Below, piece after piece: positions 36,330-36,992 of a stretch of DNA of 58,754 nucleotides. The notes beneath the pieces are model-generated. The model was not told the DNA's origin. It saw only the letters and a list, made by a program, of their open reading frames with translations, and made no database searches. Numbering within the stretch: the stretch's first letter is position 1; each line of letters starts with the position of its first letter. The stretch comes from an uncultured Eggerthellaceae bacterium (GTDB lineage Bacteria > Actinomycetota > Coriobacteriia > Coriobacteriales > Eggerthellaceae), in assembly GCA_934645125.1 (NCBI GenBank), contig CAKUDT010000001.1, forward strand, positions 1-58,754, read 5' to 3'. Made by a program: the position numbers and the translations under genes.

Positions 36330-36428
36330 AGTTCCTCCAAGCGATCCCTTTGCGATGCAGCATCTTTAGCTCGATTGCGCCAGTTCAGAGGCTGCACGCT
36401 TAACGTATACTTATAACTGCATGCGCCA

Positions 36429-36456
36429 ATTATACGATATAGTCTACTATTTGGAA
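36429..36456 (-). promoter_or_regulatory. Candidate sigma70-type promoter for the importer/radical SAM operon
   Basis: Minus strand reads TTCCAA-16 nt-TATAAT, about 95 nt upstream of the SBP start codon. Confidence 0.35.
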
Positions 36457-36546
36457 TGTTTTTTTATTGGCAATTAATACGAACGGTTTGAATGAGAATT
36501 TAAAATTGCTTGGCGAAGAGTCAGATTCCTCTTCTCTAAATACAAA

Positions 36547-36826
36547 ATAGGAGAAAACCGATAATTTTTTAGTATTCTCCTATCTTTTGTGCTGTCAGAA
36601 TAAGCAATATAGGAGGAATTTTTATTTTTCTATCATTTCCTCCTATGAATGGGATCAGTTTTGAAGAAATAAAACCCCCTCAAGAGGGTTCGCCGGGCCC
36701 ATAAGAGCATTTCAGTCGTTGAAAATAGGAGGAATTTTATTTTTTCCCGATTTCCTCCTATTTTGACCAATATGCACTTCAGAAAAATAGGAGGAAATAC
36801 GACTTTTTTTTATTTCCTCCTATTTT
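36547..36826. repeat. Array of four related palindromes (ATAGGAG(G)AA ... TTC(C)TCCTAT) in an AT-rich island
   Basis: H1 36547-36583 (9-bp arms), H2 36609-36646 (10 bp), H3 36722-36764 (13 bp), H4 36784-36826 (16 bp, perfect). Loops are 11-19 nt, T-rich on the plus strand and not conserved. Confidence 0.85.
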
Positions 36827-36992
36827 CGGATTCAAGAAACGCTTAAAGAAGCAAAGAGCATTGCTCAGCGTGAGACAGCAGCACAGCAGAAAGGTCGAAT
36901 TGCGGCAGAAGAGTGTCAAGGGCGGTGAAGAGCACTCTTCTGGCGCTCCGACTCACCCTCACGCGCGCCGACCAGGCTACAATCGGCTCAAA

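Follow-up and report, generated by a model that had tools for sequence, protein, structure and literature searches.

The 58.7-kb window analysed here—the whole stretch of DNA from an uncultured Eggerthellaceae bacterium—holds an AT-rich island with four related palindromes, named H1 to H4, between the gene for an RluD-like pseudouridine synthase and the gene for the substrate-binding protein (SBP) that opens an ATP-binding cassette (ABC) transporter operon. Both flanking genes lie on the minus strand, so that, relative to transcription, the island is 3′ of rluD and 5′ of the SBP gene, and two permease genes follow the SBP gene. The GC fraction drops to 0.31–0.40 over ~36300–36900, compared to ~0.55 on either side, and ORF (open reading frame) analysis finds no frame longer than 46 aa in the island. 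The original prediction for this locus had described the AT-rich island with its four palindromes and the lack of a meaningful ORF; both descriptions hold, the arm sequences of H1–H4 are exactly as given there, and the spacing of ~62 within each pair is confirmed. What it had missed is that the four units make up a single composite element of fixed geometry. It is one copy of a previously undescribed DNA element of ~280 bp that a small group of uncultured gut Eggerthellaceae carries at intergenic sites with unrelated neighbours.

The repeat finder and direct reading of the sequence recover the palindromes as four 43-nt units of one repeat family, with start-to-start spacings of 62/116/62 in the window. 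From the first TAGGAG to the last CTCCTA the geometry is 35(36)/27/35/80/35/27/35 nt, with A4/T4 flanks around the units. The arms are perfect over 16 nt in H4 (11-nt loop) and extend over 13 nt in H3 (17-nt loop) and 10 nt in H2 (18-nt loop), while H1 has 9 perfect positions, or 15 at 87%. The pattern ATAGGAGGAA-N8-25-TTCCTCCTAT matches three times in the window, versus 0 in 100 shuffles, and the half-site with one mismatch permitted matches nine times versus 0.3 expected, with seven of these nine matches inside the four units. The window contains one copy of the element, whose components and neighbours are as follows (window coordinates; fold energies are for RNA, and the window units also fold as single-stranded DNA).

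36544–36826 (283 bp), no strand: whole composite element, four palindromic units and three spacers, with the same 0/62/177/239 architecture in all Eggerthellaceae-type loci examined
36544–36586: unit H1, AAAA-TAGGAGAAAAC...GTATTCTCCTA-TCTT; −15.5 kcal/mol, z = −4.7
36583–36609: spacer S1, 27 nt (TTTT, ~19 variable nt, AAAA); length conserved, sequence not
36606–36648: unit H2, TAGGAGGAA-N18-TTCCTCCTA, 36-nt core; −12.7 kcal/mol, z = −3.6
36646–36725: central spacer (core), 80 nt, with A/T-rich patches every ~10–10.5 bp, in register across loci; sequence not conserved
36722–36764: unit H3, AAAATAGGAGGAA-N17-TTCCTCCTATTTT; −14.9 kcal/mol, z = −4.0
36761–36787: spacer S3, 27 nt; length conserved, sequence not
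36784–36826: unit H4, AAAATAGGAGGAAATA-N11-TATTTCCTCCTATTTT; −20 kcal/mol, z = −7.0
36672–36691, minus: canonical GC-rich intrinsic terminator in the central spacer, GAACCCTCTTGAGGGGGTT then TTTATTTCTTC, from terminator scan and hairpin fold
36384–36452, minus: near-invariant block of ~69 nt outside the element, from three orthologues (alignment columns 541–609)
34914–36329, minus: ABC-transporter SBP gene, first in its operon, downstream flank, outside the element
36993–37982, minus: RluD-like pseudouridine synthase gene, upstream flank, from ORF, Pfam and public gene calls

The statement in the original prediction that the island matches no described element is borne out by every collection consulted. 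At gathering score, Rfam returns nothing for the element across the whole window and only a tRNA, and at permissive E-values the best hit in the region reaches 24 bits against a gathering score of 80. Likewise, blastn against plasmid and phage collections gives no match to the element, and a literature search on the motif and on repetitive extragenic palindromic (REP)-type elements in Coriobacteriia/Eggerthellaceae found no description, returning primers and unrelated papers only.

A dispersed quartet of fixed geometry

A scan of related genomes for the motif, which had been proposed along with the original prediction, reveals a family present both at other loci and in related strains, so that the refuting condition stated there, absence of the motif elsewhere, does not apply. 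The palindrome scan required exact arms and covered one genome per species, listing at least 118 loci, to which the relaxed unit pattern TAGGAG-N22-25-CTCCTA was then applied. Among the matches listed, repeated hits on several contigs come from five Hadza-gut metagenome-assembled genomes labelled 'uncultured Eggerthellaceae' and from one assembly labelled Hallerella sp. Every Eggerthellaceae-type locus holds exactly four units at offsets 0/62/177/239 (TAGGAG-N23-CTCCTA, four times), and a second unit occurs in 0 of the 106 single-palindrome loci of other phyla among the matches listed. These ~106 single palindromes, which have the same 10-nt arms, no second unit and mostly unrelated flanks, were set aside as ordinary terminator-like hairpins sharing the arm by chance. 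Many of those from Bacteroidota (L006, L046, L054, L065, L094, L110, and others) share longer arms, AATAAAATAGGAGGAAAA...TTTTCCTCCTATTTTATT, with flanks that are again mostly unrelated; they could be chance resemblances among AT-rich terminators or a separate hairpin family.

Searching metagenome contigs with the doublet pattern yields four further copies, two of them canonical and two in which the central gap is widened from 115 to 127 and 138, and the same pattern gives 0 matches in viral contigs. After grouping orthologues, the element occupies at least 11 distinct intergenic sites in at least 6 assemblies. Four of these sites are represented by more than one copy: locus A (the window, L095, L123–125, and L127/128), locus B (L068, L030, L040, and L081), locus C (L003 and L119), and locus F (L036 and L121); L022, L061, L015, L043, L038, L120, and L122 are single-locus sites. 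Single assemblies (CAKUFS, CAVDDP) carry at least three loci each.

The spacing is nearly rigid across this family. Spacers measure 26–27/79–81/26–27 nt in 14 of 16 measured loci, and those of the 27-nt type measure 26–27 nt in all 16. In the two exceptions the core measures 92 and 103 nt, i.e., +12 and +23, corresponding to about one and two extra helical turns. They belong to L120 (904–1189) and L122 (3912–4208), which form a divergent metagenome subfamily with higher GC and weak loop T-runs. Both the architecture of the element and its dispersal are established by these comparisons.

Three copies of the Eggerthellaceae-type element (L015, L043, and L081) come from assembly CAVDDP, labelled Hallerella sp., a Fibrobacterota genus, and L081 additionally holds an Eggerthellaceae-like DUF1638/guaB locus, which suggests that this assembly is mis-binned or mislabelled.

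The neighbours of the element, assigned by Pfam and ORF analysis, are unrelated housekeeping genes including guaB, ychF, yacP-rpoB, mltG, asnB, yqeY, and queA, and they are arranged in all possible orientations. Five contexts are tandem: rluD/SBP operon in the window, SNF transporter/ychF, mltG/yceG followed by a beta-lactamase-like gene, a small ORF/yacP-rpoB, and L043, where a zinc-ribbon membrane protein lies upstream and the contig ends just past the element. Three are convergent (DUF1638/guaB, asnB/3H-HTH_11 regulator, and SSF transporter/EamA transporter), and one, locus C next to yqeY, is divergent. No transposase was found in the ~10 kb around any copy.

Conserved and drifting positions

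Across 45 independent units, the hexamers TAGGAG and CTCCTA vary at a single base only, and over the 64 units counted in all, likewise just one hexamer base differs. The A4/T4 flanks are also conserved, as is a T-run on one strand at the centre of each unit. Position 7 of the unit is G in 62% and A in 38% of cases, so the invariant core is TAGGAG rather than the Shine-Dalgarno core GGAGG; the arms had originally been described as a consensus AGGAGG ribosome-binding site, a description that these frequencies do not sustain. Element alignment shows no similarity between loci in the loops, the 27-nt spacers or the 80-nt core, even for copies from one assembly. The proposal of conserved arms with unrelated loops therefore stands for the arms, which are invariant, while for the loops it has to be amended by their shared central T-run. 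This T-run gives each unit a polarity that is alike for all four units in most loci, which makes the units direct repeats, and within a doublet only the arms can cross-pair.

Position-specific identity of H1–H4 across elements, or a duplication structure within them (H1~H3, H2~H4), was only marginally above the between-element identity. In some elements, units are near-identical with their variable stems included: H1 equals H3 in L043 (5320–5593), and H2 and H4 differ by 1 nt in L121 (388–661), in both cases beside unrelated spacers, which hints at short-tract conversion between units. A small ORF or a Shine-Dalgarno sequence plus start codon in the loops was considered and rejected, as only H2 has an ATG (2 nt after AGGAGG) and it is not conserved at other loci.

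Orthologous sites separate what is kept from what drifts. At locus A, three orthologues were compared, whose SBPs are 94–100% identical; across their intergenic alignment, the columns average 89% identity. The eight hexamers agree at 48 of 48 positions when the window is set against L127, whereas identity is 75% in the unit interiors, 72% in the 27-nt spacers, 80% in the core and 65–85% in the flanks, and some stems have been replaced between orthologues by different sequences that are still self-complementary. At locus B, the spacers of L081 cannot be aligned with those of L068, L030, and L040, but hexamers, spacing and phasing are kept. The hexamers, the spacing and the A/T phase are under purifying selection, and this pattern of selection is as well established as the architecture. 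The suggestion that the island is a scar of low-GC foreign DNA fails because hexamers and geometry are maintained at orthologous sites.

More distant relatives lack the element. In three genomes whose DUF1638 protein is 82, 79, and 74% identical, the nrdD-DUF1638/guaB synteny is kept with 10, 44, and 133 nt between the convergent stops, and no unit is found in 14–21 kb; similarly, the element was not found at the SBP operons of more distant relatives (62–66% identity). The family thus belongs to one subclade only; it was acquired there at many sites and has remained intact since. All loci found through one intact unit have their four units intact, with no decayed relics, and no target-site duplication or insertion boundary could be defined between filled and empty sites, the intergenic DNA being too diverged. 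Among the empty sites, L134 (3748–3759) has the convergent DUF1638 and guaB genes just 10 nt apart, and L138 (10669–10803) holds a long GC-rich hairpin, a conventional bidirectional terminator, between them.

The core, in which no sequence is shared, carries a positional signal of another kind. Its A/T fraction peaks approximately every 10 bp, near spacer positions 3, 14, 24, 36, 44, 56, 65, and 76, in register across loci. Periodogram power at 10–10.5 bp is 0.63 for 11 loci and 0.65–0.73 for two alternative sets of seven independent loci each, compared to 0.05–0.09 (maximum 0.45) after circular shifting of the cores, where 0 of 2000 shifts reach the observed value. The spacings themselves approach whole helical turns: 62 bp is ~6 turns and 115 bp ~11, with the variants of 127 and 138 bp at ~12 and ~13.

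Candidate modes of action

The arrangement of the element suggests, as a tentative first choice among the readings considered, a wrapped or looped architectural site acting at the DNA level, analogous to the bacterial interspersed mosaic elements (BIMEs) of Enterobacteria. Action on DNA is proposed because of the dispersal, the exact geometry, the phasing of the core, the selection on the hexamers, the independence of context and the lack of a strand-specific RNA signal: mirrored mismatches in the stems comprise 23 G:T and 30 A:C, with no G:U-type bias on either strand. Judging from the A/T phasing, the core would be curved or wrappable DNA. Periodic GC/AT variation marks the gyrase-wrapped arms in E. 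coli, where BIME-2 elements are strong, transcription-independent gyrase sites (PMC6379681), and by analogy the variation seen here can be taken as a signature of DNA lying on a protein surface.

Each unit follows the plan A4-TAGGAG-(~5 bp covarying stem)-T-run-(stem)-CTCCTA-T4, and two doublets, with units 62 bp (~6 turns) apart, face each other at 115 bp (~11 turns) across the A/T-phased 80-bp core, whose sequence is free. Under such a mechanism, the eight invariant TAGGAG half-sites, in duplex form or extruded as hairpin stems, would be the targets of a sequence-specific protein or of a DNA-wrapping enzyme such as gyrase. The bound protein would wrap or loop the pre-bent core, and a fixed node, nucleoprotein or topological in nature, would result between transcription units. 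Covariation in the hairpins could then reflect the use of cruciforms or templated correction of the palindromes. Wrapping, looping and any role in topology or insulation are putative parts of this one proposal. A further-reaching version, which is rather doubtful, would see the quartets as a new class of chromosome-organising cis element, vertically maintained, whose eight half-sites are bound by an unknown protein or by gyrase that wraps the core and makes loops or supercoil barriers in this gut Eggerthellaceae clade. An origin by copying and a present function for the host are compatible with each other.

Several observations weigh against an architectural site. The stems covary: at the mirrored stem positions 7–15, 281 Watson-Crick pairs are formed, compared to 222 ± 8 when right arms are permuted among units, the pair-counting tool gives a covariation score of 0.226 versus 0.118 ± 0.011 (0/500), and cells changed on both sides number 67 versus 30 ± 5. 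The flanks covary too (AAAG...CTTT, AATG...CATT). This covariation, together with the hexamers identical at 48 of 48 positions in orthologues, agrees with the original proposal of selection on palindrome arms able to pair; it points to an intrastrand hairpin, which a duplex-binding protein would not need, although it could alternatively stem from cruciform use or from templated correction of quasi-palindromes. The periodicity is only moderately coherent over the whole element (274 bp; R = 0.33 at 10.3–10.4 bp, with other peaks at 8.5 and 12.5), so that the claim is restricted to the core, and even there the test covers ~7 independent loci that a search for intact units had recovered. The loop A-run lies on the sense strand in each of the five tandem loci, a polarity that hints, for five loci only, at a link to transcription or replication left unexplained by action at the DNA level. 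Finally, the protein that would bind the half-sites is putative, and the 58.7-kb window itself has a single copy of the element.

The strongest competitor, although unlikely, is that the units are REP-like hairpins acting in RNA or transcription, as bidirectional intrinsic terminators or as protective hairpins at 3′ ends, so that the quartet would be a terminator/insulator cassette between operons. It accounts for the terminator-like shape and stable folding of the units (−12.7 to −20 kcal/mol, z −3.6 to −7), for the covarying stems, and for the match between loop polarity and gene direction in the five tandem loci. The locations also fit, since at least one gene 3′ end adjoins 10 of 11 loci, three of them between convergent genes, and at the empty site L138 an ordinary GC-rich hairpin takes the position of the element. 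On the other hand, RNA hairpins provide no rationale for the rigid 27/80/27-nt spacers or the 10.5-bp A/T phasing, locus C lies between divergent genes, and there is no sense-strand surplus of G:U-type mismatches. Intrinsic terminators have a GC-rich stem, a loop of 3–8 nt and a U-run directly after it, at the 3′ end of the transcript. The units have an A-tract, a stem and a T-tract, but their stems are AU-rich in a genome of ~55% GC, their loops in the window are 11–18 nt long, and the terminator scan leaves them uncalled.

The terminator that is called at locus A bears on the same question. Read along the minus strand, the features come in the order rluD stop, H4, H3, GC-rich hairpin with its U-run, H2, H1, invariant block and SBP start, and in the orthologue L127 the GC-rich hairpin has changed from CCCTC/GAGGG to CTCTC/GAGAG, a compensatory change. 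This embedded terminator is the probable end of the rluD transcript. Reading from the order of features, transcription of rluD would pass H4 and H3 and stop at the GC-rich hairpin, leaving H2 and H1 outside that transcript. A conserved terminator between H3 and H2 means that the four units do not belong to one transcript. That this terminator has been maintained 3′ of H4 and H3 on the sense strand implies read-through of both units, which counts against their acting as efficient terminators. No common terminator or other motif was found in the central spacers, where only locus A has a canonical terminator. The original options of bidirectional terminators or of Shine-Dalgarno/anti-Shine-Dalgarno RNA thus survive in a weakened form, since a canonical terminator follows two of the palindromes and RNA accounts for neither the rigid spacing nor the ~10.5-bp phasing.

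An improbable alternative is a non-autonomous mobile element without host function, in which the palindromes would bind a transposase or recombinase encoded elsewhere, and the curved core and its phasing would serve the synapsis of the doublet ends. Such an element could resemble a miniature inverted-repeat transposable element (MITE) or a REPIN, a REP doublet mobilised by REP-associated tyrosine transposases (RAYTs). The element is multi-copy, and it is present or absent between related lineages, with empty sites of 10–133 nt in the same nrdD-DUF1638/guaB synteny; its architecture would, from this standpoint, be too complex for repeated origin, so that it must have spread by copying. The fixed doublet spacing resembles that of REPINs, which can persist vertically over long periods (PMC3116915; see also bioRxiv 10.1101/2021.07.10.451892), and units within one element are sometimes identical, as for H1 and H3 of L043. 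Mobility of this kind is difficult to reconcile with same-genome copies that share no spacer similarity, with the lack of a definable target-site duplication or insertion boundary, with the absence of decayed relics and with hexamers conserved in situ between orthologues. Moreover, the units are direct repeats of the same polarity, unlike the inverted repeats of REPINs, no transposase lies near any copy, and the phage and plasmid collections hold no match.

It is very improbable that the element works as a structured RNA or as a decoy, sequestering or mimicking Shine-Dalgarno or anti-Shine-Dalgarno sequences. The arms do contain AGGAG(G) and CCTCCT, but the T and A of TAGGAG are as fixed as its GGAG, 38% of units have A in place of the second G of GGAGG, and the Shine-Dalgarno-like bases are buried in the stem. 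Convergent gene ends offer no downstream gene, Rfam holds nothing similar, and the arguments from geometry and phasing apply equally here.

Operators or iterons through which a neighbouring DtxR-type or LuxR-type regulator would control the SBP operon, as also put forward originally, are suggested by the position of the element upstream of that operon and by a TAGG...CCTA half-site that presumably recalls DtxR boxes, if loosely, yet they are effectively refuted by dispersal: the same quartet recurs at no fewer than 10 further loci, whose neighbours are unrelated, include no DtxR- or LuxR-type regulator and stand in tandem, convergent or divergent order. Besides, the element does not include the SBP promoter block, and distant SBP operons lack the element. 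The range of contexts excludes an operator role for the SBP operon or the nearby DtxR/LuxR regulators, and the element is not a specific regulator of the adjacent SBP operon. The promoter of this operon probably resides, together with a conserved leader, in the near-invariant block at 36384–36452, which is more conserved than the nearby intergenic DNA, has no Rfam match, and bears a TATAAT at 36429–36434 (minus), with ~90 nt separating it from the SBP start codon.

Comparison with known elements and neighbouring features

Among known kinds, REP/BIME and REPIN elements come closest, although several defining features of both are missing. Like the REP palindromes that make up BIMEs, the units are interspersed, strictly extragenic and indifferent to the function of the neighbouring genes. 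Both consist of imperfect palindromes of ~35 nt repeated outside genes—here as 35-nt cores at a minimum of 11 intergenic loci—with conserved stems and variable loops arranged in defined mosaics, and in BIME-1 the palindromes flank a core bent by the protein IHF. There is, however, no sequence relationship to BIMEs, and the element is AT-rich in an actinobacterium of ~55% GC. It always has exactly four units in direct orientation, never single units or variable arrays, whereas the orientation in BIMEs alternates. BIME linkers are conserved motifs, while here only length and A/T phase are conserved, and REP/BIME sequences reach hundreds of copies per genome, compared to an apparently low copy number here, with one in the 58.7-kb window.

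Like REPINs, the element has doublets at a sharply preferred distance, repeats that are better conserved than the spacer between them, the potential to form hairpins and long persistence by vertical descent (PMC3116915). A REPIN, however, consists of two inverted REPs forming one long hairpin, whereas each unit here is its own palindrome and neighbours have the same polarity; in addition, REPINs go with a cognate RAYT (Y1 transposase) gene that the repeats flank, whereas neither a RAYT nor any other transposase occurs in the ~10 kb around the copies, and no singlet remnants were seen. MITEs differ by their terminal inverted repeats, target-site duplication and full-length similarity, compared to unrelated loops and spacers without visible duplication or boundary. 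An array of clustered regularly interspaced short palindromic repeats (CRISPR), which comprises many direct repeats, unique spacers of similar length, a leader and cas genes close by, is not a fit either, as there are only four units, uneven 27/80/27 spacing, the same count at every locus and no cas genes nearby. Operon-specific operators such as the DtxR/IdeR box, which are restricted to one regulator's regulon and overlap its promoters, would not be expected beside unrelated neighbours, convergent gene ends included.

Two other systems offer partial parallels. The DNA uptake sequences of Neisseria and Haemophilus occur as inverted pairs in terminators, approximately one per kb, and resemble the element in their conserved arm, free loops and location at gene ends; they differ in that the window has eight half-sites in 58.7 kb, all in one element with rigid geometry. 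In the GalR repressosome, operators 113 bp apart are brought together over an apex bent by HU, in a device specific for a single operon and with a known repressor. The likeness lies in palindromic sites ~11 helical turns apart over sharply bending DNA, here with length variants that differ by whole turns, and the difference in that the element is dispersed and not tied to one operon or known repressor.

Interspersed palindromic elements are well studied in only a few Proteobacteria, and their roles for the host are debated. The present family comes from uncultured gut Actinomycetota and has a selection pattern that is easily read, as half-sites, exact spacing and helical A/T phase are kept while the rest drifts, which suggests a defined and directly testable nucleoprotein geometry. 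Should gyrase or a dedicated protein prove to bind it, the element would offer a clean natural model for the placement of architectural or topological nodes between genes. In practical terms, the analysis removes a tempting but wrong operator annotation for the ABC-transporter operon, and provides a simple pattern by which copies of the element can be annotated in metagenome-assembled genomes.

Regarding the flanking genes, the RluD-like ORF has 329 aa with a TTG start as listed (no public record), versus 311 aa in public gene calls. The SBP operon (window ~27000–36329, minus) is an unusual cluster of transporter and enzyme genes, comprising, according to the L123 gene calls, the SBP, two permeases, an ATPase, two radical-SAM-like proteins, an 817-aa class-V aminotransferase fusion and a methyltransferase; the SBP itself is without a Pfam match. 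The tRNA gene that is the sole Rfam family match in the window lies at 23179–23259 on the minus strand.

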